A stretch of DNA of 64,000 bases from a phage: sequence record PX393110.1, one strand, 5' to 3'. Positions 1 to 39,095 of the stretch are shown here, piece after piece; position 1 is the stretch's first letter, and the number at the start of each line of letters is the position of its first letter. The notes under the pieces were generated by a model. That model was not told the origin of the DNA and did no database searches. It saw nothing but the letters and a program-made list of their open reading frames with translations. The position numbers and the translations under genes are program-made.

Positions 1-231
1 ATTATCTGTACGGCATTCATAACCACCATTCTCTACAGCGGTATGCAGGATCTTGGTTCTGTCCATTAATTTAAAAGCCATCAGTGAACCTATAGATTCC
101 GATTTCAGATTTATCCTGGTCAGATAAGTGACCCTGACGGTACATAACCAATCCATCACGAGTCCGGATTATGTCATCTGGGCAGATAGGCTTTAGCCTA
201 CTCATGACCATCAATGCTCTTACCCATTCCA

Positions 232-754: not shown

Positions 755-1125
755 ATTAGATTTGTTGTTATCAGTGTATAGGTATGACTGATTGCAGCTA
801 AGGCAGTAAGCATCTTCGATAATTTGACCAGGAACTTAATTTGATCCACAGTCATATTCTCATGTTGCTCATCAAGAAGAGCTGAGGTCCTTAAGGACAG
901 ACCCAGCAGATCTATAGGTTGAGCAACTCGCTCCGCTAAGCTTCCGCATAGACCATCTTCGGTTTCCACCTGAATTAATTGGTCTACAATAGTGTTGTAG
1001 TGAATCGGGAGGAGGTCATCCTTGTTAATAGTGTCCCGTAACCCAACAAGACTCGTCGTTACGATCTTGACGTTATCTTCATCGACTACGTGACCACCAA
1101 CTACGGCTCTGAAGTATACAGACAT
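745..1125 (-). CDS. hypothetical protein
   Basis: 126 aa ORF in minus-strand tiling. Confidence 0.35.
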   Translation of the reverse strand: MSVYFRAVVGGHVVDEDNVKIVTTSLVGLRDTINKDDLLPIHYNTIVDQLIQVETEDGLCGSLAERVAQPIDLLGLSLRTSALLDEQHENMTVDQIKFLVKLSKMLTALAAISHTYTLITTNLMWS

Positions 1126-14296: not shown

Positions 14297-14566
14297 TTAT
14301 CGAATTAGCCCATACTTCCATGCCATTACATGCGCAGGTTCGTTATGAGCGAAGAATGCGGTACCCTTCTTGGTAGTAAGCACCAAACACGGCTTATTTC
14401 CCATCATATCAGCCATGCTAGCTACCACAGTCTTCTCAGACCCAGGCTTAGCCGGATCAATGCCCATAGCTATTTTATGAGCAGTTGTCTTACCAGGACG
14501 TCTCGGATTAGATACCAAGACTTTAGGGGAGGTCTTTCGGCCACCCTTACGCTGCTTTCTCGCCAT
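14297..14566 (-). CDS. hypothetical basic protein
   Basis: 89 aa ORF with Lys/Arg-rich N-terminus. Confidence 0.3.
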   Translation of the reverse strand: MARKQRKGGRKTSPKVLVSNPRRPGKTTAHKIAMGIDPAKPGSEKTVVASMADMMGNKPCLVLTTKKGTAFFAHNEPAHVMAWKYGLIR

Positions 14567-17500
14567 GTTTAGGCTCCAGAGTTATTTTAGCCTTAAGCTC
14601 GATATACTTACATCCCCAGCCTGTACCGTCGGAACGAATACCGGATTTGGAGTTGAAGCTGTTAGCTATAGAGTTTAACTTCTCCTTCTCCTTAAGGATC
14701 TCTACGTATGGAGTCCACTGGCTATACTGATCGAGAGCTTCCAGTAGTTTCTCCAATGCAGACTCACGACCCTCAACGATCAGCCATCCGGAACCATCTT
14801 CGTTAACTCCATAGTCATCCAGACCCATCAAGGAACCGCCCCGAGCACCGAATTCGATATCAGTGCGCATAGGCATATCCCAGAGTTCACGAATAGCCCC
14901 CTCCATATTCTCACGAGTCTTCTGGAACACCTTGAACATCTCGTTGATTCCGGATGTGGTATCCAAGGAGTCGTGGACCATGATGTGAGTCTCGGCCTCC
15001 ATATTGGACTGCTTAAAGTCCTCATCCAGGAAGTACATACCTGCGCCAGCAACCATCGACGAAGTATTCTGGATAGGATAGTTCACCGAAGTAGAGTTAA
15101 CGTTGGTACCTTCCAGGTTGATACGGTTACCGAAGTAACCATAAGCATACCCAGTCTCGAAGCCATTTTTCTTGGTAGCATCAATCCATGCCTTAAGACC
15201 GGTAAACTTACCGAATACCGTGTCCATCAGATTCTGAGCACGCTCCATATCACCACCAGTAGCAACCATCGCTACCGATTCAAGGCTAGACTGGTATACT
15301 AATGCGAAGTTAATCGCCTTACCACCCTTACGCTCAACATCAGTTACTTCAGGTTCAGACTTCTGGTATGCAATCGAGCTAACGAATCGGTGCATGTCGC
15401 CACCAGATAAGAATACGTTCTTCATATCCGAGTCATCGGCGAACACGCTAACCATCACCAGCTCAGCCTGGCTAAAGTCCTGGTGGTACCACAGGCCACC
15501 CTCCGGCTTAGATACCCAGATGTTACGCAGAGTACTGTCGCCAGGAACGTTATGAATACCTGCCTGCCAACGAGATGTAATCGCAGCCAACGAGTTAAAG
15601 TCCGGAGTCATGATGTAGCAATCTTCACCATCCTGCAACTTCGGATTATCCCAGTCGTACTTACGAACTCGCAGCGGAGGTAAACCATCACGTAGTTTAG
15701 CTGCCCATACCGTCTGGCGTCCTACCTTACCATCAATGTATGTAGCAATCTGTTTGTAGTGACGCTTATACATCTTCAGGTCAACCATCATACGGAACGA
15801 TGTATTCCAGGTAGACTCGTCATCCGGATTAACTCCCAACATCAACTGGTGAATAGCCAATTGGGCATCGAGAACATCCGCTTTAAACTTATTCGTGAAT
15901 CGCTCTTCATAAGCTTCCAGACCGTCCTGGACGCACATGGCAATTAACTCCCGAACATGCTTAGACTCAGCAGTATCCCCGAATTGGATGATCCTGGTTA
16001 AGATCTCATCTACCGGAAACTCCCGGAAGAATTCCCTCTCCAGCTTCTCCGAATCCTTAGGCACGAACCCCTTAGAGATCGCCAGCAGGGTTTTATCCCA
16101 GTAGTCATGCACCTTAAGCTGGTCCATTACAGACCATAGCATGGTACACATCTCTACTTCATCAGTAAGATAGGCTTTCCAGAACTTCTCCTTATTAGCC
16201 TTATCGTTACTGTTAGGGTTGAAGAATCCTGACAGATCAGCAATCTTCCCAGCCAGAGTAGTAACCATCTTACGGCGCTCTTGTCCACCAGGAGTGTACC
16301 ATACGTTCTCGTACGGCAACTCTCGATAGATAAAGTCGCGAGCTGTAAGCATCTGGTCAGGAGGTAACTTAAGGTTAGGGATTAGGCTAACCAAGTGCTC
16401 CGACATTTTGCTCATGCAATAGTCGTACTCTTTAGTCGCCTCTTCGTCATCCCAACGAATACCGTTAGCTTCGAAGATAGATGCCAGGTATGGATGTAAC
16501 ATATATACGTTATACCCATCCTTATACTTATCGTAAAACATCTCGTGGATGAACACACCGTACGCGGAGTCATAGCAGCAGTACTCCCCAAGAATCTCAC
16601 GAGGAATCGCACCCCACTCATATGGGTAGAACGATGCCAAGTAAATAATCTCGGATTCTTCGAGCTCCTCCGATAGTTCGGCTATCTTATCCAGCATAAA
16701 CTGGTTGAAGTTAACAGGAATACGATTCTTAGCCGCCTTAGTCGGAGCCGCTTCCACGAGTTTCTCGTACTCAGCTTTAAGAGCTAGGTGATGCTCAATA
16801 TTGAACTCGCCAGACTGAATCTCTGCAATCTGCTCAGGAGTACAACGCTTCTTCATATCCTTGAAGATAGCTGCCCAACGATCCTTCCATTCGTGTACCG
16901 ACCCTTCCCAGAAGTCTGCATGTAAATAACGACGAGCAGCATCTTTCAACGAGCTCCGTTCGCCATGCATAGTCAGAGTTACAATCGCATCGATAAACTT
17001 GCAGAATACGTCTAACCAATGCCACGTAGTCTTAATCTCGTACGGACAGTTAAACGCCACGATCTGCTCCTGGAACTTAACCAGGAAGTCACGCAAGAAT
17101 CCTAGCTGTTCCGGAGTCTCTTTACCGGTAACATTGTACCATACGGACTTGGCATCCTTATCACCAATCTTCTTAGCGATACTGAATCCAGTGATCCGGA
17201 AGTCTACCGAGAATAAATCAGCTGCGTTAGACTCATAGTCGAGGCCGAGATAGCCTTTGTACCCAGACCACATAATGTCGTTAAGGAACTCCTGGAGGCC
17301 GTTCCAGTCGACGAATTCCCACTCTACATTATATTCGGATTCTTTCTGGCCGAATACCAGAAACTTAAAACGATCAATCCACGAATCAAGTATACCAGGA
17401 TCAGAATCCAGATTACGTTCAACCTGGGCATGGTGCATGACTACAGCTAGCTTAAAGTTATACTCCGGTATGTTACCCAGAGGGAACTTCAGTAGCTTAT

Positions 17501-17834
17501 CCAGAGTCTTCTTATGCGTATAGCCTGGGGATATAGTCGCAGCTAATTGGCGACCCAAAGTCATTACATGCTTAACGCCATGCTTTTCACACAGCTCGTA
17601 AAAGTTGAGACCATCCTTATCACGGATTTCGTCTATGTTAGACAGCTCTTCGAAAGTACCATCTCTGTTGATCTCTATCAGACCAACTTTGTTATGTACC
17701 CCAGCTGTAATTAGCGCTACATCAAGAGTTTGGCCAGCATTCGATGCAGCAAACGGAGGAGCATCATTATTCTCGCGCTCGTCCCCGATAATGACATAGT
17801 CTACTTCGCCAACTAAATTGTGATTCAGAAACAT
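14547..17834 (-). CDS. family A DNA polymerase
   Basis: motif A DFSQAEL (cf. DYSQIELR), motif B KGGKAINFALVYQ (cf. RRxAKxxNFGxxYG), motif C VHDS (cf. VHDE); start refined to MFLNH at 17834. Confidence 0.8.
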   Translation of the reverse strand: MFLNHNLVGEVDYVIIGDERENNDAPPFAASNAGQTLDVALITAGVHNKVGLIEINRDGTFEELSNIDEIRDKDGLNFYELCEKHGVKHVMTLGRQLAATISPGYTHKKTLDKLLKFPLGNIPEYNFKLAVVMHHAQVERNLDSDPGILDSWIDRFKFLVFGQKESEYNVEWEFVDWNGLQEFLNDIMWSGYKGYLGLDYESNAADLFSVDFRITGFSIAKKIGDKDAKSVWYNVTGKETPEQLGFLRDFLVKFQEQIVAFNCPYEIKTTWHWLDVFCKFIDAIVTLTMHGERSSLKDAARRYLHADFWEGSVHEWKDRWAAIFKDMKKRCTPEQIAEIQSGEFNIEHHLALKAEYEKLVEAAPTKAAKNRIPVNFNQFMLDKIAELSEELEESEIIYLASFYPYEWGAIPREILGEYCCYDSAYGVFIHEMFYDKYKDGYNVYMLHPYLASIFEANGIRWDDEEATKEYDYCMSKMSEHLVSLIPNLKLPPDQMLTARDFIYRELPYENVWYTPGGQERRKMVTTLAGKIADLSGFFNPNSNDKANKEKFWKAYLTDEVEMCTMLWSVMDQLKVHDYWDKTLLAISKGFVPKDSEKLEREFFREFPVDEILTRIIQFGDTAESKHVRELIAMCVQDGLEAYEERFTNKFKADVLDAQLAIHQLMLGVNPDDESTWNTSFRMMVDLKMYKRHYKQIATYIDGKVGRQTVWAAKLRDGLPPLRVRKYDWDNPKLQDGEDCYIMTPDFNSLAAITSRWQAGIHNVPGDSTLRNIWVSKPEGGLWYHQDFSQAELVMVSVFADDSDMKNVFLSGGDMHRFVSSIAYQKSEPEVTDVERKGGKAINFALVYQSSLESVAMVATGGDMERAQNLMDTVFGKFTGLKAWIDATKKNGFETGYAYGYFGNRINLEGTNVNSTSVNYPIQNTSSMVAGAGMYFLDEDFKQSNMEAETHIMVHDSLDTTSGINEMFKVFQKTRENMEGAIRELWDMPMRTDIEFGARGGSLMGLDDYGVNEDGSGWLIVEGRESALEKLLEALDQYSQWTPYVEILKEKEKLNSIANSFNSKSGIRSDGTGWGCKYIELKAKITLEPKHGEKAA

Positions 17835-17864
17835 GTTTAACTCCAAAAATAAACCTCCGCCAAT

Positions 17865-21479: not shown

Positions 21480-22553
21480 TTATTCCAGAATAAACGGAGA
21501 CTTATCCCCGAGGCGGTTCGCGACCCATTTCACGAATGGTGAATTAACCAGATGCTCGCACTGGATAGACATGTGAGCTCCAGTAGTCTTACATAGATAA
21601 TGAGCGCCTGCTAACCACATCATCACATCCAGAGTTGATCCTGGTTGGAACTCTCGACCAACATCTTCCATTACGTATTCTAGAATACTGTGATCGCTAT
21701 TATAACGAGAAGCAGCATCTTCAAGAGTAGCGATGTAATGCTGGAAGTAGGTACGGATCTTATACCAGGAATTAAGTGATCCGAGATCAATCGTAGTTAC
21801 CGGAGCTTCATTAATGTCGTCAACATAAGCTCGGATATTACTTACCTGCTTCTTGATGTTCGACACTTCCGGATACCAGTGGAGATCATCCGTCATCACC
21901 ACATAGTTGCCCATATCTACTTTGAGCATAGTTGCGATGATTTCCTGGATGATCGTGAACTCCACCAGATTAACGTTAGTCAATCCCCAGATTAGATCAT
22001 TACTACGGTTGAATACCGTGCAGTCCAGACCACCATTACGGTACTTAAACGATAGAGCAATGTTGCAGATCATATCTGCGGTATTGATGCTGCCAATGCT
22101 GTTTACCAGACCTACATCAGAATCACGGCTGGGATCGTGAATAGTAGCCACGCACTTACGGTTACCCAGGTCAGAACGGAGGCGGTCTGTTACAGTCTGG
22201 AGTTGATCGTAGTTATACAGACGCTCACCGTAAGCACCACGCCAGGTAACCATATCATCGCTAAACATCTTAGCGCGAGGAACCATAATCGACATCCAGT
22301 TATCGATTGCATAGCCACCAGACAGTACCCACAATACTTCCCCCATAATTCCGAGGATATTGTCTTTACGTTCTGGATGAGCCATCCAACGATTAATCGG
22401 ATTACTTAACTCAACTACAGCATGACCGATGGATACTACCGCCGAAGAGTTAACAGAAGTTCTGGACTTCTGCAACTCACCAGCCTTATCCATAGTATTG
22501 ATGCTGTTAACCAGGATTTCAGTATTACTGTTACCGCGAATTACCGAGATCAT
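21480..22553 (-). CDS. thymidylate synthase-family enzyme (ThyA homolog; possible pyrimidine C5 hydroxymethyltransferase)
   Basis: ILGIMGEVLWVLSGG (cf. ELLWFLxGxTN), WRGAYGERLY (cf. PVYGxQWR), ADMICNIALSFKY (catalytic Cys region, cf. ALPPCH..QFYV), LDCTVFNRSNDLIWGLTNVNLVEF (cf. LSCQLYQRSxDxxLGxPFNIASYALL). Confidence 0.6.
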   Translation of the reverse strand: MISVIRGNSNTEILVNSINTMDKAGELQKSRTSVNSSAVVSIGHAVVELSNPINRWMAHPERKDNILGIMGEVLWVLSGGYAIDNWMSIMVPRAKMFSDDMVTWRGAYGERLYNYDQLQTVTDRLRSDLGNRKCVATIHDPSRDSDVGLVNSIGSINTADMICNIALSFKYRNGGLDCTVFNRSNDLIWGLTNVNLVEFTIIQEIIATMLKVDMGNYVVMTDDLHWYPEVSNIKKQVSNIRAYVDDINEAPVTTIDLGSLNSWYKIRTYFQHYIATLEDAASRYNSDHSILEYVMEDVGREFQPGSTLDVMMWLAGAHYLCKTTGAHMSIQCEHLVNSPFVKWVANRLGDKSPFILE

Positions 22554-23361: not shown

Positions 23362-24333
23362 CTAGCTAAACTTATACCAGCGAGGTCTCATACGGATCTC
23401 GTGATTCAGTTTATGTAGTTTCGAGAATTCGCAGAATGAGTTGGTGAACATCTGGCGAGTATAGAATCGCTCATCCTCTGGCATGAAGTGGAACCATTTC
23501 TCCGGTTCCCATGAATACCCGAAATGTGCACATATCTCTTTGATGTTCTGATACCACCATTCCACGAATACCTGATAACCACAGGGAGGATTCTGGTCAT
23601 TAATCATGTACCATACCCCATCCTGAGTCCCAGGTCCACATACGATAGCGTCATTATCTGTATACGCAGTCTCTTTAGAGTAGGACATAGTTGCCCAGCA
23701 TTGATATGCCATGAACGGACCTAATCCAGATACCTGTAACAGATGCTCGATAGCCTCGGTAGCGAACGGAGACTTCCATGCCCATAAGATAGGATCACTG
23801 TAGGTCTTCACCAGATAGGCTCTGGCAGCTACACTGTACTTAATATCCTCTGGACATACTTCATTAGCCATCTTAACTGCTGTGCTAAGGAAGTAGGCAT
23901 TTGATTGCTGTGGAGCGGTGAACGGAGGACCATCCTCATAACGACGTAGCTCTTCGCGACCCATGTTATGTATGTCGTCATAGCTCATCTCATAAAGAGG
24001 AAGGACTCTGCGGAAGCGATCCATATATGAATCACCACGGTTTATCATCTGGAAGAGTACTACATTAAGTGCTTTACTCTCCCAGCTTAAAGAATCGTTC
24101 TCCAGAATGTTCTTAATAGCCCACACTGTTTCACGATCGTGCTTACGGAACACGTTAGTGAATTTGAACTTACTAATCCACTTATGTTCCGTCCACGGAG
24201 GAGGCAGCTTAAGCACCTCCTTCTTATAATAAACCTCTGTACGTTCACGGTTATACTCCACATACTCCCGTAACTCCTCAGGATTTATCATCCCAAGGAG
24301 TCCTTCGTAATGCAGACCTAACGGTGTTGACAT
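23362..24333 (-). CDS. hypothetical protein (323 aa), translationally coupled to upstream GT
   Basis: start ATG overlaps upstream stop (TAATG at 24331-24335); Trp/aromatic-rich, no recognisable motif. Confidence 0.45.
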   Translation of the reverse strand: MSTPLGLHYEGLLGMINPEELREYVEYNRERTEVYYKKEVLKLPPPWTEHKWISKFKFTNVFRKHDRETVWAIKNILENDSLSWESKALNVVLFQMINRGDSYMDRFRRVLPLYEMSYDDIHNMGREELRRYEDGPPFTAPQQSNAYFLSTAVKMANEVCPEDIKYSVAARAYLVKTYSDPILWAWKSPFATEAIEHLLQVSGLGPFMAYQCWATMSYSKETAYTDNDAIVCGPGTQDGVWYMINDQNPPCGYQVFVEWWYQNIKEICAHFGYSWEPEKWFHFMPEDERFYTRQMFTNSFCEFSKLHKLNHEIRMRPRWYKFS

Positions 24334-27179: not shown

Positions 27180-27210
27180 TTAACAGCCTTTTAGGTCATC
27201 AAACAGGCGG
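27180..27210 (-). promoter_or_regulatory. class-1 conserved motif, copy 6
   Basis: TTAACAGCCTTTTAGGTCATCAAACAGGCGG; overlaps the 3' end of the transporter gene. Confidence 0.4.
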
Positions 27211-28581
27211 AGTTTCCTTAGCCAAGAATACTTTAGGTACAAAGATCTTGAGGAACCCGAATAGAATACACAATACCCCAATCAGTACCGGAACAGCCGA
27301 TACAGCTACCAGAGTCTTCGTTACAGTTACTACGTCGCCACCTGCCCAGTTAAGTGCAGCAGCAACTACACCCATGCTTACAATCCAGAATACACGAGTT
27401 CTAGGAGCGGTCATGGACTCTACCGTAATACCTGCTGAGTCATGACCTGTAATAAAGAACAGGATCACAGACACGAGGGTAATTACCGAGAATATCCATC
27501 CGCCTGGGAAATTAGCCAGAAGCTGGAAGATATCCTGAGCACCATGTTGTAGACCAGCTACACCGAATACGGTAAACCAGACGTTACTGATGATGGTAGG
27601 GAACAGTACACATCCGAGGATCAGTTCGCGAATAGTACGGCCGTAAGAGATACGTGCCACAAACGCTCCGACGAATAATGCCCAACCTACCCAGGCTGCA
27701 TAGTAAGCATAAGGCCAGCTAGCCAGCCATTGCTTCTCTTCAGCAGTACTGCCGATGTTTACTGACATAGGAATAATCTGGAGCAGATAGCTACCAGAAT
27801 AGGTGATGGTCTTCCAGAGGTATTCGAAGAATGTACCACTTACAGCAACGAATGCCATAATAGATAGAGCTACGATTACATTATATCTGGATAACCACTT
27901 AACCCCACGATCGACACCAGTTACGGCACTAAGTACAGTACCCAGAGTCAGGAGCGCGATAATGGTGTAAGGACCAACATCCACTCCCAGGAACTCTTTA
28001 AATCCGGAACTGATCGGGCCTACTGCGTAGACGAACGACAGGGTTAAGCCTATGATGGTAGAGAAGAGTAAGCTTATCGTATTAAGGTTATTCAGAGCTC
28101 GGGACTTGAATAACTGATTAAGCGGACGGTCTTCACCACGTACATGCAGTAAGTACCCGAATGCCACCCCTACGACTGCATAAACTGCCCATGCGTTAAG
28201 TCCCCAGTCAAAGAAGGTAGTTACCATATTCTGACGTTCGGACATACCCTCCTGCTGATGGTACATAGGTTCGAGTACACCATAATAAATCATGGATACA
28301 CCCATACCGGTACTAAACATCATGGAGTAATAGGTAAAGCGATTATATTTCGGAGCACCTTTACCCAGCTTAATGTTACCATGCTTGCTGAATACAAAGA
28401 ATGCCAGGAACGCTAGGAAGATCAGCGAAGACCAGGTAAATATGAATCCATACTGAGATATGAATACAGACTTACTCCAGTCCATTACAGCACCAAACTG
28501 GGTGGGAGCTAACATAATGGCGAGTATGATACCCACCGTTACTAGCACCGTCCCCCAGGTAACTACCTTTGAATCTGACAT
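27199..28581 (-). CDS. BCCT-family (betaine/carnitine/choline-type) secondary transporter
   Basis: multi-TM protein; FSKHGNIKLGKGAPKYNRFTYYSMMFSTGMGVSMIYYGVLEP (cf. FSRYGNIRLG...WFAMLFxAGMGIGLxFxGVxEP) and VGAFVARISYGRTIREL (cf. GMFLARISRGRTIREF). Confidence 0.7.
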   Translation of the reverse strand: MSDSKVVTWGTVLVTVGIILAIMLAPTQFGAVMDWSKSVFISQYGFIFTWSSLIFLAFLAFFVFSKHGNIKLGKGAPKYNRFTYYSMMFSTGMGVSMIYYGVLEPMYHQQEGMSERQNMVTTFFDWGLNAWAVYAVVGVAFGYLLHVRGEDRPLNQLFKSRALNNLNTISLLFSTIIGLTLSFVYAVGPISSGFKEFLGVDVGPYTIIALLTLGTVLSAVTGVDRGVKWLSRYNVIVALSIMAFVAVSGTFFEYLWKTITYSGSYLLQIIPMSVNIGSTAEEKQWLASWPYAYYAAWVGWALFVGAFVARISYGRTIRELILGCVLFPTIISNVWFTVFGVAGLQHGAQDIFQLLANFPGGWIFSVITLVSVILFFITGHDSAGITVESMTAPRTRVFWIVSMGVVAAALNWAGGDVVTVTKTLVAVSAVPVLIGVLCILFGFLKIFVPKVFLAKETPPV

Positions 28582-30439: not shown

Positions 30440-31687
30440 TTACAGTTTACCGATCATCTTCTGAATCATCTCATCAGAAGTCTGATTCTCTACCTTAGCA
30501 CGACGCTCTTGCAGATTAGCAATGCGGTCGTCGTGATCTTTCTTACGCAACATGCTAATGCTACGGCTAAGGCAGGAATTCAACACTTCCTGGGTAATAC
30601 CGAGAGCTTTGATGATCTGAGCATCAGACTTATCCTGCATAACCAGCTCGCCCACTTTAGGAAGAATCTGGTAAATCTCGATGTCTCGGTCAATCTTCTT
30701 AAGCGACTCAGTCTTATGGACGGAGAATGCCTGATTGTAGAGAGCCATCGTGACTGCAATCCAGTCGCGAATACCCATCGTCACCAATTGGCCATTATAA
30801 GCTACCTGGATACGATGCGAGCGGTTCATGTAAGCAATATTCATGCATGCTTCGTGAACCTCGTCCATATCGATGGTTCTGATACGTGGAGCCTTCATTA
30901 CTCGGATATAGATCTTATCCTTGGACATGTTCTTGACCAGGATCTTACCTTCGGACAGCCACTTATTCAGGAAGCCGATGCGAGGAGTAATCACCTCACC
31001 AGACCCGATGATGTCGATGGTATCGGTATTGACACGAGTCACCTTAAGGCTAAGACCGAGGCGACCTACACCAGTTTCCCACAGCTGCTTAAGGTCAGAC
31101 TTAGCAGGCACGATATCGTAACCGTACTGAGCCTTAAGCAGATTGTAGTCATCATGCTCATAAGCATCCAGCAGTGACTCATAGGTGAACGCTGGAATAC
31201 GAGACTGAATCCCCGTAGCCCATGAGAAGGTACCGTACATCAGAGCATACGGAATCGGCACCGGAAGGTACGCATATTCCATCTTCTCTTCACCTTCCAC
31301 CTGCGGAACATAGTCCGCTAAGCCGAAGTAGTACTCTGCACGATCTTCGTTCAGGCCAACCTTCGTGTAACGAGGAGCCGCACCAGGTACTTCTTCCAAC
31401 AGTTTCACACCGAAGGAACCCTGACCATCAATAGCTCCGATACGAGCCAGACGAGAGATAGTTCCATCGATAGACTGGTCGCCGAATGGGTGGAGCGACT
31501 GAGTCTCGGAGATAGCACTCAGAGTCCCAACCAGCTTCCCGCGAGCAATGCTATTCAGCGCCATGTAGATACGACGCTGAGCAGGAATCAGGCCATCGAT
31601 ACCAGGAACTACACGATGAAGAGCACAGTACACACTGTAGTCAGTGTAGTTCTTGGTGATGAATTCAGAAATCTTTACCTGTTCCAT
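30440..31687 (-). CDS. type II DNA topoisomerase, DNA-cleavage subunit (GyrA/gp52-like)
   Basis: IDGLIPAQRRIYMAL matches the GyrA-type RDGLKPVQRRILY segment. Confidence 0.6.
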   Translation of the reverse strand: MEQVKISEFITKNYTDYSVYCALHRVVPGIDGLIPAQRRIYMALNSIARGKLVGTLSAISETQSLHPFGDQSIDGTISRLARIGAIDGQGSFGVKLLEEVPGAAPRYTKVGLNEDRAEYYFGLADYVPQVEGEEKMEYAYLPVPIPYALMYGTFSWATGIQSRIPAFTYESLLDAYEHDDYNLLKAQYGYDIVPAKSDLKQLWETGVGRLGLSLKVTRVNTDTIDIIGSGEVITPRIGFLNKWLSEGKILVKNMSKDKIYIRVMKAPRIRTIDMDEVHEACMNIAYMNRSHRIQVAYNGQLVTMGIRDWIAVTMALYNQAFSVHKTESLKKIDRDIEIYQILPKVGELVMQDKSDAQIIKALGITQEVLNSCLSRSISMLRKKDHDDRIANLQERRAKVENQTSDEMIQKMIGKL

Positions 31688-31689
31688 AA

Positions 31690-33675
31690 TTACTCCTTAA
31701 ACAGACCGTAGTCTTCTAACAGTTGGCGACGAGCACGAGATGAGTACAACAATTTACGAGCGGCATCGAGATGCTCTTCGTTATCATCGTAGGTGACCTG
31801 GATAAGACGGCGAGTCTTCGCATTCACGATGAACTGCTCAGTCTCTTCCTCTGTGTAGGAACCGAGACCCTTACGACGTTCGACATAGGACTTATCGAAG
31901 TCGATCTTATCCTTCTCATCGGCGTAGTAGAACTCGGTCTTCTTACCGTTCTTGACCACATAGAACGGAGCTTCGAGTTTATACAGACGACCATCCTTAA
32001 CCAGCTCAGGAGCATGGATGAGGAAGATTGAACTGATGAGATTACTGATGTGCTGACCATCCACATCCAGGTCAGTCATAATGATGACCTTACCGTAGCG
32101 TGCTTTATCCAGGTCGAACATAGAACCCATGCCGCAGCCGATAGTGTTAATGATCGCCAGCAGTTCTGGGTTATTCACGAACTCCATAATATCCATGGAA
32201 GCCGAGTTACGCATCTTACCACGGAGCGGAAGCACCGACTGATACTCGTTACGCAGTTTGATGATGTTACCCGAAGCAGACGGACCCTCTGTGATGAACA
32301 GTTCACGAAGATCCCAGCGGTCAGACGGAGATTCGTAGATCTTCGCCATGTCTCCGTCCATAGCGGCCTTACGATGATCGTCACCCATCACCAGCTTGGA
32401 TTTAATGAAGTCCATGTTGGAGAGTTTATTCAGGCTGGCTTTGTAAGCCAGGATCTTGGCAATCAGAGCATCGAAGAACTGCTTATTCTGCTCATAAACC
32501 AGGCTGAAGTAGAATGTGAGCTGACTAAGGCATTCTTTCTCATAGAAGAAGTACTCGCCATAATAGTCGTAATCATTGATCTGCTCATCATCCAGCATCA
32601 GCTGATTCTTGGCATAGATTTCCCAGTCGCTCCAGGACATACCGAGACCAGTCAGCTTCTCCTTAGTCTGGGAGGAGAATGCAGTACGGTAGCTGGAGAA
32701 GACGTTAGTGAACACGATCAGACCCAGCTTAGCATCACCAACAGTGATGGCCGAGTTGATTTTATTCAGCATGCCGCCGAGCGCTCTCGTGACCAATTTC
32801 TCATGCAGACCACCATGCGGGTTATTGATCAAGTTGATCATGTCCACGTGGGAGTAAGACATATTCTTATCAGAATAGCCCAGCTCTCCGGAGAATGTCA
32901 GACGATCGTTGAACGAGAACTCATACTTAACAGTAGAGTCCAGGAACAGCTTCTCATTTTCGGCAACATCCGCACGGAAGTCCCAGGTAGCCAGAGCTTC
33001 ACCATTTACGGTGATAGTGGCATCTCGACCAATCAGGGAGATCTTCAGAGGAACCGTGTCCACATCAGACCAGATGCTGCGGTACAGAGTAGCATCAGGA
33101 ACCAGGAAGACTGCTGTAGAGAAGTCAGTAGCCTTTAAGGTCTCCAGCACTTCATCCGGAATACCGTCATCGTGAAGATCGTTCAGATCATTGATTACGG
33201 CATCAATCTGCATGATACCACGACGGAAGCCAAGCACGTAGAACTGACCAGGCTCCATAGGGATGTGTGCCTTATCACCCTGCATAACACGGCGAATCAC
33301 GATAAAGCGCTCAGACACTGCGTTAACAGCAGAGCTACCTACACCGTGAGTACCGGAAGTGATTTCGCGGTTATCACCCAGCTTGGAACCTGCGTGAAGA
33401 TCTGTTACAGTAGAGAACAGGATTGACTTAGTCGGATCTTCCGGATCAGCGTAGATAGGAATGCCGCGACCGTTGTCGGTAACCAATTTATAGGATTCAC
33501 GGTTAATGATCTGCACCAGGTTGGCATGACCATTAAGCAGCTCATCCTCCGCGTTATTGATTATTTCCTGGAGAGGATGAGTGTAGTTAATCGGGTCGCC
33601 CAGATACATCGACACGTTCTGACGAACGTTATCAGGGTAACGCAATCTTGTGATTTCAATAGCATGTTCTGACAT
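31690..33675 (-). CDS. type II DNA topoisomerase, ATPase/TOPRIM subunit (GyrB/gp39-like)
   Basis: GHKL ATPase N-terminus VSMYLGDPINYTHPLQEIINNAEDELLNGH; start refined to MSEHAIE (ATG at 33675). Confidence 0.7.
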   Translation of the reverse strand: MSEHAIEITRLRYPDNVRQNVSMYLGDPINYTHPLQEIINNAEDELLNGHANLVQIINRESYKLVTDNGRGIPIYADPEDPTKSILFSTVTDLHAGSKLGDNREITSGTHGVGSSAVNAVSERFIVIRRVMQGDKAHIPMEPGQFYVLGFRRGIMQIDAVINDLNDLHDDGIPDEVLETLKATDFSTAVFLVPDATLYRSIWSDVDTVPLKISLIGRDATITVNGEALATWDFRADVAENEKLFLDSTVKYEFSFNDRLTFSGELGYSDKNMSYSHVDMINLINNPHGGLHEKLVTRALGGMLNKINSAITVGDAKLGLIVFTNVFSSYRTAFSSQTKEKLTGLGMSWSDWEIYAKNQLMLDDEQINDYDYYGEYFFYEKECLSQLTFYFSLVYEQNKQFFDALIAKILAYKASLNKLSNMDFIKSKLVMGDDHRKAAMDGDMAKIYESPSDRWDLRELFITEGPSASGNIIKLRNEYQSVLPLRGKMRNSASMDIMEFVNNPELLAIINTIGCGMGSMFDLDKARYGKVIIMTDLDVDGQHISNLISSIFLIHAPELVKDGRLYKLEAPFYVVKNGKKTEFYYADEKDKIDFDKSYVERRKGLGSYTEEETEQFIVNAKTRRLIQVTYDDNEEHLDAARKLLYSSRARRQLLEDYGLFKE

Positions 33676-33711
33676 AGTTTCTCCGGTCAGGTTTAAATAA
33701 GCTCGCACAGT

Positions 33712-34384: not shown

Positions 34385-37150
34385 CTACTCTTCCATAAAC
34401 GTAGTTACGTTATTGGAAAGGTAGGCACCGATTTTAGTATTATATCTCTGGAACGTAGGTACATGAGTAACCAGGATGATGTGATTAACCGGAATGTCCT
34501 GGAGAGCATCGATAGCTATGTCCAGAGTATTCACATCCAGATTCTTCAACGACTCATCCAGAATCAGGCATCCAGCACCTTTACTAAGGCTAATCAGCTT
34601 ACCGATGAACAGTACGTCCACCAGGTTCTGCTGACCACCAGAGAGATCAGAATACGGAATCAGGAACTCACCGACTTTGTATTGAACATCAAAGTCAATC
34701 TTGATATTTCCATTAGCCTGTTCACGAACGGTAGAGATGACCATATCACCACCAGTCATCATCGCAGCCACTTCCTTAAAGATAGAAGCAGTTACGTCAC
34801 CGCTATTAGTGAACAGATTCTGATACTCCACCAGCTTCTGATACTTAGGCTGAAGAGTAGCCAGCTCAGAGTTAGCCTTATCCAGCTTCGTCTGAGCATC
34901 GTCCATACGAGACTTAAGACTACGAAGAGTAGCCATAGCTCCGATAGTGGAGTTAATCTCGATAAGCTCTTGTTCCAGCTTAGCGACTTCCTCTTCCAGA
35001 ACTTGCACGGAGGAATAGGACTTAGTCTTATTCTTAAGCACTTCCACATCGCTATTGACGGTATGAATCTTCTGGCGAAGAGTGGCCACATCGTTTAGCA
35101 GACCGGACTTACGACGGAGTTCGACTAATTCGTTATTCTTAAGAGCCAGCTTCTGTCGGATTTCATCAGACTTAGGAGCCTTACTTATCTCAGCTTCCAC
35201 AGCATCCAACTTAGACACAGATACAGATCCCTGTGTCTCGAGCTCATCCATCTTACTTCTGATAGAGCTCTGTACCTGCTTAATGTCCTCTTCCTTAAGA
35301 GACTGTTTACAGGTAGGACAGGTAGTGGGAATATTCCGCATTTCTGTCTCTAACTTAGTCAACTCCTGTTCCAGACGAGTCAACTCCTTAGTTAGAGATT
35401 CGCTCTGGTTATGGAGCGAACGAATATTCCCTTCTACTTCCGACACTTCGGCATCTAGCAGAGTAATTTCGCCACGGACATTAGCGAGTGCGGAGTTAAC
35501 CTCTTCTTCGCTAAAGTCTATATTGAACGCAGCCAGCGAGTCTTCCAACATCTGAAGACTCTGTAGCTTACTATCCAAATTACCCAGCTCCCGGATCTTC
35601 TGACGAATATCATCAATCTGAGGAAGGATTCGGGATTTAGCCTCTTCCAGATCACTTACGTCCTTGAGTCTGGAGAAATCGTGATCCTCCATCGTCTTAA
35701 GGACTTCTTCCTGAGCAGTAACCTGAGTCTGGAGATTACCGATCTCTACCTTACAGTTCTTAGCCGAGGCCTTTGCGACAGCTTCGTACTGGTTAATTAC
35801 GGTAAGACCAAGCATCTTCGTTATCAGGTTGATACGCTCGTTGAATCCGAACTGGCTAAGGAACGGAGGACTGTTCTGGGAGCGGTACAGAAGATCGAAG
35901 TGTTCGAGGAATGGCAGCATCTCCCAGAGCTTAGCTTCACGCTCACGAATACTTCCGCCATCCATCTCATCGCCATCAATCCAGACTCGGAACGTCTGAC
36001 CACCAGCCCAATGGCGACTGATCAGGAATTCACGACCACCATACTCCAGCATCACTTCTACCAGAAGATGGTCCTGACCGAGTCTCACCACGTTACGAGG
36101 ACTGTCGCTACCAGTTAAGCAGTAGTTCAGAGCTCGTAACAGCGAGGATTTACCATTACCGGTTTCGCCGTAGAGATAAGTCAGACCTTTCTTAAAGTCC
36201 AGCTCCAACTTATCGATGCTACGGAAGTTCTCTACCTTAATGCTATTTAAGGTAAAGTTGAGGTCGAATACCGACTCGGAACGATCAACGTGGGTAGACA
36301 TCTCATCATGGATATCTTTAAGACCTTTAGCCCGAACGACTTTATCGATAACTTCTTCGACATCAATAGACTTAACCGAGATGCGTGAAGCATCCATCAT
36401 CTGAGCTCGTTCACGAACTACCAGATGTGGGTAATTGTCCAATCCGACAGGAACCTCATCTTCCCAGTACATCTTTAAGTACTTAAAGGAATCAGACTCT
36501 ACCGGAACCCGCTGCCAGGAAAGATCTTTGAGATCCAGCAGTACCAGACTGCCTTCCTGACTATCACCCATCCCATGAGGAATAGGCACGTTCACCGAGT
36601 GAGTATGACCGATGCTGATAGGACGGTGGATGTCACCCGCAAATCCCAGATCGTACTTAGTATCGTCGAACTCCTGACCGAACATCGAGGACAGGGTAAT
36701 ATGGCCGATTAGGACATCTACTTTATCCTGGATGAAGCTAAAGTCCTGAGTCGGACGCCAGTCGCTGAAGGCGACCTTACGGCCACCTAAGTTCAGGATC
36801 TTACCATCGACATACTCCGCCTTACCAGCCAGGATCGGCACCAGCGAGTTCTGATAGTGATCAGCATCTACCGATTTGGAGTTAATGTCGTGGTTACCCA
36901 GAATGTAGTAAATCTCGGAGAACTGCTCACCGAGGATGTCCATAAACTGGGAAGTAGCATGTGCAATCTTAGGCTCGTGCTGAGCCTTATGCACCAAGTC
37001 GCCAGCGATAGATAGGCAAGTAACTTTATGTTCCTTACCCATCTCCACCATACGATGAGCCAATCTGATAAACTGCTTTAGCCGAAACCCTTCCGAGTTA
37101 TGTTGCTGAAACTCATGAATATGAATATCAGCAGCAATTAACATTTTCAT
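34385..37150 (-). CDS. fused Mre11-Rad50 (SbcD-SbcC) recombination nuclease/ATPase
   Basis: N-terminal phosphoesterase motifs (ADIHIH, GDLVH, GNHD, GHTH); then Rad50 Walker A YGETGNGKSS, long coiled coil, ABC signature LSGGQQ; one uninterrupted 921-aa ORF. Confidence 0.65.
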   Translation of the reverse strand: MKMLIAADIHIHEFQQHNSEGFRLKQFIRLAHRMVEMGKEHKVTCLSIAGDLVHKAQHEPKIAHATSQFMDILGEQFSEIYYILGNHDINSKSVDADHYQNSLVPILAGKAEYVDGKILNLGGRKVAFSDWRPTQDFSFIQDKVDVLIGHITLSSMFGQEFDDTKYDLGFAGDIHRPISIGHTHSVNVPIPHGMGDSQEGSLVLLDLKDLSWQRVPVESDSFKYLKMYWEDEVPVGLDNYPHLVVRERAQMMDASRISVKSIDVEEVIDKVVRAKGLKDIHDEMSTHVDRSESVFDLNFTLNSIKVENFRSIDKLELDFKKGLTYLYGETGNGKSSLLRALNYCLTGSDSPRNVVRLGQDHLLVEVMLEYGGREFLISRHWAGGQTFRVWIDGDEMDGGSIREREAKLWEMLPFLEHFDLLYRSQNSPPFLSQFGFNERINLITKMLGLTVINQYEAVAKASAKNCKVEIGNLQTQVTAQEEVLKTMEDHDFSRLKDVSDLEEAKSRILPQIDDIRQKIRELGNLDSKLQSLQMLEDSLAAFNIDFSEEEVNSALANVRGEITLLDAEVSEVEGNIRSLHNQSESLTKELTRLEQELTKLETEMRNIPTTCPTCKQSLKEEDIKQVQSSIRSKMDELETQGSVSVSKLDAVEAEISKAPKSDEIRQKLALKNNELVELRRKSGLLNDVATLRQKIHTVNSDVEVLKNKTKSYSSVQVLEEEVAKLEQELIEINSTIGAMATLRSLKSRMDDAQTKLDKANSELATLQPKYQKLVEYQNLFTNSGDVTASIFKEVAAMMTGGDMVISTVREQANGNIKIDFDVQYKVGEFLIPYSDLSGGQQNLVDVLFIGKLISLSKGAGCLILDESLKNLDVNTLDIAIDALQDIPVNHIILVTHVPTFQRYNTKIGAYLSNNVTTFMEE

Positions 37151-38004
37151 GCCGACTCCAGTATCTTAGCCGTAACGCATCTGTTGTACTTACCCAGTAC
37201 ACCATGGAAATACGGAGGAAATCTGTGACCTGGACAGAACTCTTCCAGAGTCGGTAAGATACGCTGTTGCATCTGTACCTTAGACTCCTGCTCCTTAATG
37301 ATGTTGTGGACTTCGGTATCAGTCAGAATCCTGTCGAGTCGCATTAGCTCCATATTGGAACGAACACGGAACTCTACCGATTGGCTTAGCGAACCATCTT
37401 TGTAAGCGTTAATCGCTTCCTTAACAGTCTTCAAGCCAGTAGCCACTCCTGGAATGTTGTCGGAGCCGTCCCCGACGATGGCTTTGTAGATGAGGTAATC
37501 CTTATGATCATCCAGATCGTAGGTCTTCATCAACCAGGGAAGATCTACTAAACCATCATCCGGATTCAGGACACAAGTATTCTCATTAATGGATAAGTAC
37601 CAGTCTCGGTCTCGTGAGTGTAACATGACCGGACGACCAGAATGAGCATAGTAGTAGCCTAAATCATCGGCTTCCACACCAGACACCTGGATACATTTAA
37701 TACCCAGCGACGGGAAGATCTGCTCGTGAAGAACATTCATAGCAGCCCACAATGCTTCGAAACTCTCGTCGTACTCACGATTGGCCTTATACTCTGGATT
37801 CTTATCCTTAGGTCTGTATCGCCACTTACCCCGATCGTACAGCATGATTAGTTCGGAGCTATATCCGTCTTCCTTAATCAACTTCGCTACACTACCGATA
37901 GTAGAGGCGACTGTAGGACCTAAATCCTGAGACTTACCGGCTGCGAACCAGTTACGAAGCGTCAACCACTGACAATCGACTGGTATTAACGGTATATCAT
38001 TCAT
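37147..38004 (-). CDS. 5'-3' exonuclease / flap endonuclease (phage RNase H-like)
   Basis: H3TH motif GDGSDNIPGV. Confidence 0.6.
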   Translation of the reverse strand: MNDIPLIPVDCQWLTLRNWFAAGKSQDLGPTVASTIGSVAKLIKEDGYSSELIMLYDRGKWRYRPKDKNPEYKANREYDESFEALWAAMNVLHEQIFPSLGIKCIQVSGVEADDLGYYYAHSGRPVMLHSRDRDWYLSINENTCVLNPDDGLVDLPWLMKTYDLDDHKDYLIYKAIVGDGSDNIPGVATGLKTVKEAINAYKDGSLSQSVEFRVRSNMELMRLDRILTDTEVHNIIKEQESKVQMQQRILPTLEEFCPGHRFPPYFHGVLGKYNRCVTAKILESA

Positions 38005-38060: not shown

Positions 38061-39095
38061 TTATTTACGGAATTTGGCGAAGCGAGAGGCAGCACCACCT
38101 TCTTCTTTGTCTTCGTCAGACTTATCGTCGCCGGCATCTTCAGTTTTATCTTCAGATTTGGCGTCAGATTTGTCGTCAGCAGCGTCTTCTTTAGACTCGC
38201 CTTTATCTTCAGACTTATCTTCGGCAGAGCTCGCGTCGGACTTAACATCAGACTTAGCGTCAGATTTGTCGTCGGCTTTCTGATCACCGGACTCTTCCTT
38301 AGATTCTTCGGCCTTAGCCTCTTCTTCAGCTTTAAGCTCTTCGAAGCCATCTTCGCCAACCAGCGGCAGACCTTTAGCCTTACGCTGGGAACGAATTTCG
38401 TCCAGATCTTTACGGACACGCTTGACCAGACCTACGTATTTGTCTTTGTCGAAGCCTTCACGGATGTACGCCTGAGCCAGCGGCTGGTAGGTCTGATCTG
38501 CAACTACCGGATCAGCTTTGCTGAACAGCGGAGTGAAGGTTACAGAACCCTGATTACCACGTACTACGGTAATCTTAACCGGAGAGCCTTTGATGTCTTT
38601 ATCCAGCATACCTTCCAGAACTTCCGGAGAGTCTTCCGCCAGCGCCGTAATGAAGTCGGTCAGTGCGTTAGCCACCTTACCGTTACCGATCACCGCATAC
38701 AGAGTATTCGGCTTCCAGTTATCAGACGGAGTGTCGGTTTTCTGCAGGAAGAAGTAGAACAGGATGTTGTACTTCAGACCGTATTTCCAGTGATTGTATT
38801 CGTTCAGCTCGTCGAGCATGTCATCCAGCTCGGCATAGTTGAAGTTTTCCGGCAGATCTTCACAGTCGGACGGAGTCTGAATACCATAGCTGAAGTAACC
38901 GTGAGTACGGACTTCACGATACAGGTTACCGACGGGGTCAGTTATGATACGACCCTGATGGCTACCTTCCGGAAGGAAAGTCGCGTTAGGGAAGTTACCG
39001 GTACCACCGGATTTCTCTTTACGCTCTTTCATTTTACCTGCGAGGGCTTTGATACCAGCTACGTCTAACTTCTTAACTTGAACTTGTTCAGTCAT
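38061..39095 (-). CDS. acidic low-complexity protein (possible DNA-binding or replisome accessory)
   Basis: 344 aa; C-terminal third is a D/K/S/E repeat (DDKSDAKSDVKSD...) ending in basic RFAKFRK. Confidence 0.35.
   Translation of the reverse strand: MTEQVQVKKLDVAGIKALAGKMKERKEKSGGTGNFPNATFLPEGSHQGRIITDPVGNLYREVRTHGYFSYGIQTPSDCEDLPENFNYAELDDMLDELNEYNHWKYGLKYNILFYFFLQKTDTPSDNWKPNTLYAVIGNGKVANALTDFITALAEDSPEVLEGMLDKDIKGSPVKITVVRGNQGSVTFTPLFSKADPVVADQTYQPLAQAYIREGFDKDKYVGLVKRVRKDLDEIRSQRKAKGLPLVGEDGFEELKAEEEAKAEESKEESGDQKADDKSDAKSDVKSDASSAEDKSEDKGESKEDAADDKSDAKSEDKTEDAGDDKSDEDKEEGGAASRFAKFRK

Follow-up and report, generated by a model that had tools for sequence, protein, structure and literature searches.

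Fusions of Mre11 and Rad50, viral ones included, were described in 2011 by Yoshida, Claverie and Ogata (PMC3175470). The examples were Mimivirus R555, Bacillus phage 0305phi8-36, and plasmid and eukaryotic sequences; they were not monophyletic, and many metagenomic homologs on phage-like scaffolds were already noted (PMC3175470). In these proteins, an N-terminal Mre11-like metallophosphoesterase is joined through a short tether to an ABC ATPase of the Rad50 type, which contains a coiled coil; motif II reads GDxxH, and motif V has Asp at the position of His206 in P. furiosus (PMC3175470). All of these features recur in the phage protein analysed here, although the sole complete phage example of the 2011 paper is without one P-loop segment (PMC3175470). 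R555 is also considerably longer (1351 aa versus 921 aa), and the structural alignments of our model with 'DNA repair exonuclease' proteins of Mimiviridae span ~1190-1360 columns at just 13-14% identity.

In T4-type phages and in bacteria the two subunits are separate polypeptides, as the initial annotation held: gp47 and gp46 of phage RB49 have 341 and 560 aa, and the E. coli SbcCD structure shows SbcD and SbcC as distinct chains. Like the present protein, the RB49 pair is homologous to Mre11 and Rad50, comes from a phage and has short coiled coils; the 47-before-46 order is shared, and so is the role expected of T4-type gp47/gp46, end resection for recombination-dependent replication. Unlike here, four small ORFs lie between RB49 genes 47 and 46, and motif V of gp47 is GHFH instead of GDIH. 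E. coli SbcCD (6s6v, 6s85, 7yzo) shares with the fused protein the CxxC zinc hook and, where the nuclease module ends at its C-terminus, a helix-loop-helix. It differs in consisting of two chains, SbcD (400 aa) and SbcC (1048 aa), in the far greater length of its coiled coils and in the larger size of its capping domain.

Domain architecture of the 921-residue protein

The DNA analysed (the window) is a 64,000-nucleotide stretch of PX393110.1, the genome of a virulent E. coli phage of the SP-15/RP13/YerA41-like lineage with thymidine-hypermodified DNA. It contains a 921-aa ORF running uninterrupted from ATG to stop (Table 1), as had been claimed without mention that the gene lies on the minus strand. 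Under uniform codon use, the chance of 921 successive sense codons is (61/64)^921 = 6e-20. GGAG is found 8 nt 5′ of the ATG, and the calculated mass agrees with the ~105 kDa product proposed at the outset. Domains were assigned by four independent routes: Pfam and PHROGs, a sequence search of the PDB, AF2 models, and hhalign to RB49 gp47 and gp46. Every Mre11 and Rad50 motif named in the initial annotation could be located in the translation.

Table 1. Coordinates of the fused gene, its parts and the adjoining exonuclease gene in the window
Feature	Position	Strand	Residues	Details
FEN-type 5′-3′ exonuclease gene, upstream	37147..38004	-		285 aa; Pfam 5_3_exonuc_N; PHROG_107 exonuclease
Whole fused Mre11-Rad50 ORF	34385..37150	-		921 aa + stop; 103.9 kDa, pI 5.2
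Mre11/SbcD-type metallophosphoesterase core and small beta-rich C-terminal sub-domain	36413..37150	-	1-246	
Flexible linker, low-confidence region	36362..36412	-	247-263	
Helix-loop-helix, candidate equivalent of the Mre11 Rad50-binding domain	36296..36361	-	264-285	
14-residue tether, from helix-loop-helix to first beta-strand of Rad50 head	36254..36295	-	286-299	THVDRSESVFDLNF
Rad50/SbcC N-terminal ATPase lobe	35801..36253	-	300-450	Walker A G328-ETGNGK334-S335; Q-loop region YRSQ425
Ascending coiled-coil arm	35336..35800	-	451-605	~155 residues; AF2 helices 451-487, 499-539, 548-605
Zinc hook	35294..35335	-	606-619	C611-P-T-C614
Descending coiled-coil arm	34817..35293	-	620-778	~159 residues; AF2 helices 620-657, 662-708, 715-778
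Rad50/SbcC C-terminal ATPase lobe	34388..34816	-	779-921	LSGGQQ 836-841; LILDESL 862-868; H896

The Mre11-type half contains DIH (8-10), GDLVH (50-54), GNHD (85-88), GH (149-150) and GDIH (172-175), and Pfam Metallophos matches residues 1-184 with 35.7 bits (cut-off 21.5). In 10 family members its motif residues are invariant except for N86 and H54. Motif I (D8-I-H10) is thus conserved throughout; motif II (G50-D51-L-V-H54) aligns with GDLFH of P. furiosus Mre11; in motif III (G85-N86-H87-D88) the G, H and D are invariant, and 4 of the 10 relatives have Gln at the position of N86; and the invariant H150 of motif IV aligns with the GH of RB49 gp47. Motif V is G172-D173-I174-H175 and not the canonical G-H-x-H; D173 is invariant in the family, and hhalign places it opposite the first His of GHFH in RB49 gp47. 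Profile and model agree on the fold. All 17 matches of the N-terminal profile to PDB sequences are Mre11, SbcD or MPE nucleases, and Mre11/SbcD proteins were the only metallophosphoesterases matched in the PDB sequence search. The AF2 model of the N-terminal part (pLDDT 85, pTM 0.78) finds Mre11/SbcD proteins exclusively among its top 50 Foldseek matches in the PDB, the best being E. coli SbcD 6s6v_A (4e-10), and hhalign aligns this half to RB49 gp47 with 94% probability. The N-terminal domain is assigned on these grounds to the Mre11/SbcD fold rather than to that of another metallophosphoesterase.

We infer a nuclease activity for the fused protein, and do not assert it, because motif V has Asp173 where canonical Mre11, SbcD and gp47 have the first His. 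Asp is a common metal ligand of metallophosphoesterases, and metal binding by Asp173 is plausible. It could instead be supposed that the N-terminal domain is a degenerate, non-catalytic Mre11 fold serving only as a scaffold or for dimerisation, which would make the protein a Rad50-like tether or ATPase without nuclease. Besides the replaced His, the Asn-to-Gln exchange in motif III of some relatives and the size of the domain (~250 residues plus the helix-loop-helix, against ~400 in SbcD) fit such a loss. However, D8, H10, D51, H87, D88, H150, D173 and H175 are all invariant down to 22% identity, which is the pattern expected for an active site under selection; the protein of PX393110.1 itself retains canonical GNHD, and Mimivirus R555 was reported with the same His-to-Asp change (PMC3175470). 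A catalytically dead domain is thus considered very unlikely.

Between the two halves, pLDDT falls below 50 at residues 250-258 in the full-length AF2 model and at 252-262 in the N-terminal model, and both models predict helices at 264-274 and 278-285. I268, V272, L277 and H281 of this helix-loop-helix are nearly invariant in the family, and its position makes it a candidate for the element that binds Rad50 at the base of the coiled coil. In the tether that follows, D296 is nearly invariant and F299 invariant. A gap of ~28 Å was calculated for the T. maritima complex, requiring 9-12 residues to bridge (Yoshida et al., PMC3175470), and the 14-residue tether is compatible with this distance. An internal start giving free Rad50 was rejected, as M284, the sole Met near the junction, is not conserved in the family.

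The Rad50-type half contains Walker A (GETGNGKS, 328-335), the LSGGQQ signature (836-841), Walker B (LILDE, 862-866) and TH (895-896). The full set of Walker A, Q-loop, signature, Walker B/D-loop and H-loop is present and divided between the N- and C-terminal lobes, between which AF2 predicts an antiparallel coiled coil (helices 451-605 and 620-778). The ascending arm would measure ~23 nm when fully extended. The CPTC motif sits at the apex of the coiled coil; both of its Cys residues (C611, C614) are conserved without exception in the family, and Pfam Rad50_zn_hook matches residues 609-639 with 21.2 bits, just below its cut-off of 24.3. Across fused homologs down to 22% identity, metal-ligand, ATPase and hook residues are all invariant with the exception of Asn86. 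Further matches were obtained to Pfam AAA_23 (53.6 bits), SMC_N (44.3 bits) and AAA_29, and to PHROG_77 'SbcC-like' (171 bits, 8e-50). In the PDB, both lobes align with M. jannaschii Rad50 3aux (1.3e-10 for the sequence alone, 1.8e-30 for the profile), and E. coli SbcC is matched by the profile at 1.5e-21. The best PDB match of the full-length AF2 model (pLDDT 82) is Rad50 of the MRN complex (2e-19), and hhalign to RB49 gp46 gives 98.9% probability.

Genomic neighbourhood

The fused gene belongs to a conserved replication/recombination module. Its neighbours are the FEN gene, two small ORFs, topo II B/A, helicases and an SSB-sized protein, and PolA is also part of the module. The FEN gene and the fused gene overlap by 4 nt, the start of the latter overlapping the stop codon of the former (ATGA), so that the two are probably co-transcribed and translationally coupled. 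This adjacency is kept in 10 of the 11 loci of the closer subclade and makes the FEN exonuclease a likely functional partner of the fused protein. No second Mre11 or Rad50 gene was found in the 64-kb window by six-frame hmmsearch with family profiles, and tblastn detected a single matching place in the related phage IME392; a separate unfused copy was likewise reported to be absent in Mimivirus and the Bacillus phage (PMC3175470).

The ATPase half also resembles components of bacterial defence systems. The PADLOC model of LmuB matches residues 298-903 (100.5 bits, 3.5e-29), weaker PADLOC matches were found to mad3, PbeC, AriA, PtuA and GajA, and LmuB chains of Lamassu are among the Foldseek matches. 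T4 gp46/47, moreover, participates in the breakdown of host DNA, and this role too would suit a protein acting not in replication or recombination but as an SMC-type defence or counter-defence effector, for instance a Lamassu-like DNA-end sensor plus nuclease, directed against competing phages or host DNA. LmuB does share with the fused protein a CxxC-type SMC/Rad50-like ATPase. It is, however, closely homologous to SbcC and has its evolutionary origin in SbcCD (PMC12663957), and the PADLOC match therefore reflects shared ancestry. Indeed, the SbcC-like PHROG outscores the LmuB model (171 versus 100.5 bits), and the best PDB sequence matches are Rad50 and SbcC. Lamassu is a bacterial defence system that requires separate LmuA (effector) and LmuC proteins and is without Mre11 nuclease, whereas no LmuA- or LmuC-like partner is encoded near the fused gene, and its N-terminus is a complete Mre11-type nuclease with no Lamassu effector domain. 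The surroundings of FEN, topo II, helicases and PolA, in conserved synteny, also speak against a defence role, as does the fact that the gene, the only detectable MR homolog in the window, behaves as a core gene of its lineage. A defence function is accordingly regarded as highly improbable.

Continuity of the junction and the family of fused phage proteins

The initial annotation proposed a natural in-frame fusion of Mre11 and Rad50, and this is borne out by purifying selection at the junction and by the many fused phage relatives. Compared with phage IME392, the gene has 317 nucleotide differences over 2766 nt, 242 of them at third codon positions, and 0 indels; all 11 changes across the junction (residues 247-299) are synonymous, and no amino acid is altered. 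This substitution pattern indicates that purifying selection maintains the reading frame there. Comparison with related phages, which had been proposed as a check, revealed the same uninterrupted fusion in independent genomes. Many phage genomes and metagenomic contigs, independent of one another, keep the fused architecture at identities of 22-38%, including phages of Acinetobacter, Ralstonia, Rhizobium, Vibrio, Cobetia, Thermus and Yersinia. Full-length, one-piece homologs occur in cultured phages of at least 8 host genera and in 33 IMG/VR contigs. Word-index protein searches returned just 9-18 relatives, and the size of the family becomes visible only from an exhaustive profile search, which gave 498 representatives of 50%-identity clusters at E<=1e-30; among the 150 best of these representatives, 123 align with the complete fused profile as a single piece. 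A scan of 185,579 prokaryotic species genomes yielded no full-length copy.

Three relatives appeared at first sight to be split, which could have suggested that the fusion is dispensable; this reading was rejected. RHph_TM39 gave three tblastn pieces and has two annotated CDS, which is an assembly artefact; its record covers only part of the genome and contains an N-run, and ~1.4 kb of it is duplicated verbatim. Thermus phage phiLo is fragmented in tblastn, yet its protein is one 867-aa CDS. In YerA41 the Mre11-Rad50 junction is fused, and the break lies before the C-terminal ATPase lobe (827 aa + 185 aa). A real split was rejected here, since the sister phage GN1 gives a one-piece match and the YerA41 sequence was obtained via RNA-seq (PMC12686479).

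Merging of adjacent 47-like and 46-like genes by a frameshift or indel in sequencing or assembly might be imagined, as unfused operons share the Mre11-then-Rad50 order (RB49 gene 47 is upstream of gene 46) and a lost stop could mimic fusion, as genomes of this hypermodified-DNA lineage are hard to sequence (PMC12686479), and as RHph_TM39 (duplication, N-run) and YerA41 (break before the C-terminal lobe) show annotation anomalies; this explanation is effectively refuted, however, by the uninterrupted junction in separately sequenced phages of 8 host genera, in the 123 cluster representatives and 33 contigs mentioned above and even in the truncated metagenomic fragments P0097 and P0144, which also cross it, by the lack of any indel and the purely synonymous junction changes relative to IME392, by the absence of homopolymers of 6 or more bases in the ORF, and by the stop-rich state of the other two reading frames at the junction. 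A check of raw reads is unnecessary because the comparative evidence already settles the frameshift question.

The fusion is real but not new in kind, and it belongs to a large phage protein family. This compact family of ~900-aa proteins was not individually described in the 2011 paper (PMC3175470). The closest ortholog, IME392 AXY86089.1, is labelled 'hypothetical protein' in GenBank, and other orthologs are called 'SMC family ATPase', 'coil containing protein' or by one subunit name alone. The cluster members that were looked up are metagenomic entries only; two entries of a single cluster carry the name 'DNA repair exonuclease SbcCD ATPase subunit'.

Proposed mechanism and meaning for the family

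We consider the protein to be, with a probability of about 85%, a bona fide single-chain Mre11-Rad50 (SbcD-SbcC) enzyme for end processing in recombination-dependent replication. By analogy with known complexes, it would most likely process DNA ends as a homodimer equivalent to M2R2: contacts between two chains at the Mre11 domains, at the ATP-engaged heads of Rad50 and at the zinc hook would give a dimer of ~208 kDa. ATP binding would clamp a DNA end between the heads, and ATP hydrolysis would allow the tethered nuclease dimer to swing onto the DNA. Cuts, both 3′-5′ exonucleolytic and endonucleolytic, would then be made at free, hairpin or protein-blocked ends. As with T4 gp46/gp47, this would initiate end resection in recombination-dependent replication and repair. 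The enzyme probably acts together with the FEN 5′-3′ exonuclease. Fusion guarantees co-expression, equimolarity and co-inheritance of both halves. The 1:1 stoichiometry that the fusion had been suggested to fix follows trivially from it, and the canonical complex is already M2R2; a selective advantage through stoichiometry is therefore conjectural.

A more specific and rather doubtful proposal is that the compact ~900-aa fusion is a lineage-defining core gene of SP-15/RP13/YerA41-like phages, whose thymidine is glycosylated or hypermodified, and that, with its Asp-for-His substitution, it is adapted to resect bulky hypermodified or topoisomerase-blocked ends. The gene may be co-inherited with the UDG-fused family-A polymerase of these phages and tightly coupled to FEN and topoisomerase II. 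If this proposal is true, the protein would represent the smallest self-contained MR machine, useful for dissecting the transition from the resting to the cutting state structurally.

The fused phage protein does not overturn the current understanding of Mre11-Rad50, and its practical value lies chiefly in annotation, as the orthologs ought to carry the label fused Mre11-Rad50. The fusion class of 2011 was reported from few sequences; it is now seen to contain a large phage family whose members are uniform in length, with at least 123 distinct 50%-identity clusters. A 104-kDa single-chain MR protein with short coiled coils could serve as a minimal model for MR biochemistry and cryo-EM.

Domain architecture of the fused protein

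As the initial annotation had claimed, the gene is a single uninterrupted ORF, and all the Mre11 and Rad50 motifs listed there are found in it (see the table). It runs from ATG to stop on the minus strand (calculated protein mass, 103.9 kDa). GGAG is located 8 nt 5′ of the ATG, and the ATG shares bases with the stop codon of the preceding gene (ATGA). In Pfam, Metallophos covers residues 1-184 (35.7 bits; cut-off, 21.5), matches to AAA_23, SMC_N, and AAA_15 start at residue 301, and Rad50_zn_hook lies on 609-639, slightly under threshold. Residues 294-915 match PHROGs phrog_77, "SbcC-like subunit of palindrome specific endonuclease" (8e-50), at profile positions 291-949 of 967; the match, beginning at position 291, is thus preceded by about 290 N-terminal positions of the profile. 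In the PDB sequence search, the protein alone matches both head lobes of M. jannaschii Rad50 (1.3e-10) and, weakly, P. furiosus Mre11 (0.02), and the family profile finds Rad50 (1.8e-30), E. coli SbcC (1.5e-21), and Mre11 (2.3e-6). All 17 PDB matches of the N-terminal 298-residue profile are Mre11, SbcD, or mycobacterial MPE nuclease, and profile-profile comparison gives 94% and 98.9% probability for RB49 gp47 and gp46, an unfused T4-type Mre11/Rad50 pair.

Judged from sequence and models, the set of Mre11-type metal-binding positions is complete, with an Asp variant in motif V, and so is the Rad50 ATPase. A catalytically dead nuclease domain is very unlikely because the active-site residues are invariant: in an alignment of ten family members (22-94% identity), invariant columns include D8, H10, G50, D51, G85, H87, D88, H150, and G172-D173-I174-H175 on the Mre11 side and G328, G331, G333-K334-S335, C611, C614, S837, G839, and D865-E866 on the Rad50 side. 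The non-canonical motif V, G-D173-I-H175, is aligned with GHFH of RB49 gp47; the GDxxH form of motif II and Asp in place of P. furiosus His206 were already reported (Yoshida et al., PMC3175470). Motif III is GQHD, not GNHD, in four of the ten members (P0004, P0005, P0008, and P0009), which changes the metal-ligand Asn (N86 column) to Gln.

The AlphaFold2 full-length model (mean pLDDT, 82.3) has coiled-coil arms of ~155 and 159 residues, roughly 23 nm, and a CxxC hook. A conserved helix-loop-helix flanked by two flexible segments is predicted from both sequence and models. A separate model of residues 1-298 (pLDDT 85, pTM 0.78) matches Mre11/SbcD chains in all of its top 50 PDB hits, the first being E. 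coli SbcD in the SbcCD head complex (4e-10). Among PDB folds, the full-length model is closest to the Rad50 chains in Mre11-Rad50 complexes; SMC, JetC, and the Lamassu defence protein LmuB come next. The protein also gives a 100-bit match to LmuB, but a Lamassu-like defence role is very unlikely as well: LmuB derives from SbcC (PMC12663957), the partners LmuA and LmuC are both absent from the neighbourhood, and the gene context is a conserved replication module.

Features of the fused protein (residues) and of its neighbourhood in the window (nucleotides)
Feature	Location	Strand	Details
Fused Mre11-Rad50 (MR) gene	34385..37150	-	921 aa
Mre11-type motifs	8-10, 50-54, 85-88, 149-150, 172-175		DIH, GDLVH, GNHD, GH, GDIH
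Rad50-type motifs	328-335, 611-614, 836-841, 862-866, 895-896		Walker A GETGNGKS, CPTC, LSGGQQ, Walker B LILDE, TH
N-terminal alpha/beta domain	start of chain		AlphaFold2 full-length model
Low-confidence linker	250-258		same model
Two short helices	264-274, 278-285		same model
First Rad50 head lobe	300-450		same model
Ascending arm (followed by the hook loop)	451-605		same model; three helices
Descending arm	620-778		same model; three helices
Second Rad50 head lobe	779-921		same model
FEN-type 5′-3′ exonuclease	37147..38004	-	directly upstream of fused gene
344-aa protein	38061..39095	-	long Ser/Asp/Lys/Glu-rich acidic C-terminal tail
Topoisomerase II	30440..33708	-	split B then A subunit genes, downstream of fused gene
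Helicases	same minus-strand block	-	ResIII/DEAD type and DnaB-like
BCCT-family transporter	27199..28581	-	460 aa, full-length; Pfam 309 bits
5-hmdU DNA kinase helical-domain protein	23362..24333	-	PF18723, 121.7 bits
Thymidylate-synthase-like protein	21480..22553	-
Family-A DNA polymerase	14547..17846	-	1099 aa; Pfam DNA_pol_A on 766-1001 only; long N-terminal extension

The fusion in related phages and metagenomes

The fusion is real, and the earlier reading of it as natural is supported on four independent grounds: the nearest phage, cultured phages, a cluster search, and IMG/VR. E. coli phage vB_EcoM_IME392 (IME392) has an ORF of identical length (2766 nt) with 88.6% nucleotide and 93.8% amino-acid identity; codon-wise, there are 317 differences, 242 of them at third positions, and no indel, and residues 247-299 (linker, helix-loop-helix, and tether) carry 11 synonymous and no amino-acid changes. 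By tblastn, the protein is found full-length and in one piece in Acinetobacter phages Ab1-TPeters and vB_AbaM_3098 (37-38% identity), Ralstonia RP13 (35%), Rhizobium RHph_TM30/TM40/TM61/Y65 (29%), Vibrio Va2, 1.031.O, and 150E35-1 (26%), and Cobetia Carin-5 (23%). In Yersinia vB_Yru_GN1, a single match spans residues 53-896 (22.6%); Thermus phiLo matches in two pieces (27%), yet its record has a single 867-aa fused CDS. Both other reading frames contain many stops at the junction, and homopolymer runs of at least six bases are absent from the ORF; with no indel against IME392 and full-length copies in other phages, the comparison that the initial annotation proposed as a check excludes a sequencing frameshift for practical purposes.

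A family profile built from 10 sequences and run exhaustively with HMMER against 1.84 billion cluster representatives yielded 498 proteins at E<=1e-30. Among the best 150, 123 match in one stretch from profile positions ~1-10 through at least 900 (lengths, about 855-1073 aa), and 22 of the other 27 are at least 811 aa long and match in several stretches. Inteins were found in two of five such long members scanned: at residues 216-603 of P0078, within the Mre11 domain, and at 360-762 of P0103, just past the Rad50 P-loop (Pfam Intein_splicing; both metagenomic). Both scanned members of the remaining short, apparently truncated ones still cross the junction. In IMG/VR, 33 viral contigs (76-350 kb) bear a full-length fused copy.

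Two apparent exceptions were rejected. In Rhizobium phage RHph_TM39 (MN988559.1, 3001-7002; a "partial genome" record), an N-run and a verbatim ~1.4 kb duplication split the gene into two CDS, an assembly artefact. Yersinia phage YerA41 (MW570730.1, 2405-5442) encodes an 827-aa "nuclease with metallophosphatase domain" and an overlapping 185-aa "DNA repair ATPase"; the junction is intact and the break lies only ahead of the C-terminal ATPase lobe. This genome required RNA-seq reconstruction (PMC12686479), and the break could be a sequencing error or a real split; its sister GN1 matches in one piece.

In a pattern-seeded scan of 185,579 prokaryotic genomes, each representing a species, no full-length match was found among the matches listed, which does not prove absence; among the best 80 loci, almost all are confined to the generic P-loop region (about residues 300-390), and a few extend into the coiled coil. 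Of the matches listed, only one, in a Clostridia bacterium MAG (JAFVVO010000015.1, 5001-6254; query residues 206-598, 25% identity), clearly extends across the junction; it may represent a fused homolog, with the contig being either bacterial or from a prophage.

Mre11/Rad50 fusions were published in 2011 for Mimivirus R555 and twelve further sequences, among them Bacillus phage 0305phi8-36, with many metagenomic homologs on phage-like scaffolds (PMC3175470). The whole fused fold is also shared, in a search against viral models, with mimivirid "DNA repair exonuclease" proteins and Tenacibaculum phage proteins of about 1310 aa, and several GenBank orthologs are already labelled recombination endonuclease, SbcC-like, or SbcD-like. 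Therefore, the kind is already known and novelty is low; the protein is a newly added member whose closest relative (AXY86089.1 of IME392) is unannotated.

Gene neighbourhood

The fused gene lies in a minus-strand block with genes for replication and thymidine modification. No second Mre11-like or Rad50-like ORF is found elsewhere in the 64-kb window, and IME392 has a single matching place for the protein. The order helicase, DnaB-like helicase, unknowns, FEN, fused MR, and (topo II) recurs on metagenomic contigs at 31-36% protein identity. In the closer subclade, 10 of 11 loci have FEN immediately upstream of the fused gene, and topo II B/A is no more than a few kb away in 12 of 38 related loci, in two divergent subclades (L003, L007, L090-L092, L103-L108, and L119); this proximity may reflect a shared replication module or a functional link, e.g. 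topoisomerase-DNA adduct removal. The 344-aa protein, without a Pfam or PHROG match, has conserved counterparts in relatives (29-38% identity), likewise encoded just ahead of FEN, and is, by inference only, a candidate single-stranded-DNA-binding protein.

The kinase helical-domain and thymidylate-synthase-like genes point to thymidine hypermodification, and the polymerase is probably the UDG-fused SP-15-like enzyme of the 2025 papers, with a putative UDG domain. 5HMUDK is reported as undetectable in RP13, with EP_H11 and IME392 mentioned alongside (10.1101/2025.03.26.645540). The window, whose MR gene is 88.6% identical to that of IME392, has a clear PF18723 protein; the metagenomic relative L007 encodes both HMUDK and ADDT. 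The block also contains the betaine/carnitine/choline (BCCT) transporter gene, annotated in IME392 too; a secondary transporter is an unusual gene for a phage.

Proposed role and lineage distribution

By analogy with T4 gp46/47 and from the neighbourhood, the protein would resect DNA ends for repair and recombination-dependent replication, probably together with FEN, whose gene is likely co-transcribed (probability of this role, roughly 85%). As in established Mre11-Rad50/SbcCD structures, two fused chains would pair into an M2R2 equivalent, and the ATP-engaged Rad50 heads would grip a DNA end. Once ATP is hydrolysed, the nuclease dimer would shift onto the DNA and cut, anchored by the helix-loop-helix and here additionally by a covalent 14-residue tether. 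Fusion of Mre11 to Rad50 was already reported as geometrically compatible, the roughly 28 Å distance in the T. maritima complex needing 9-12 residues (Yoshida et al., PMC3175470), and the tether length fits this estimate.

The cultured carriers IME392, EP_H11, RP13, RHph_TM30, phiLo, Carin-5, and YerA41 coincide with the SP-15/RP13-like group, defined by UDG-fused family-A polymerase and hypermodified thymidine (PMC12686479; bioRxiv 10.1101/2025.03.26.645540); neither paper mentions the fused MR gene. The compact single-chain MR might be an adaptation specific to this lineage of hypermodified-DNA phages, with coupling to FEN and topoisomerase II, but this is doubtful; if so, it would provide a useful minimal MR model.
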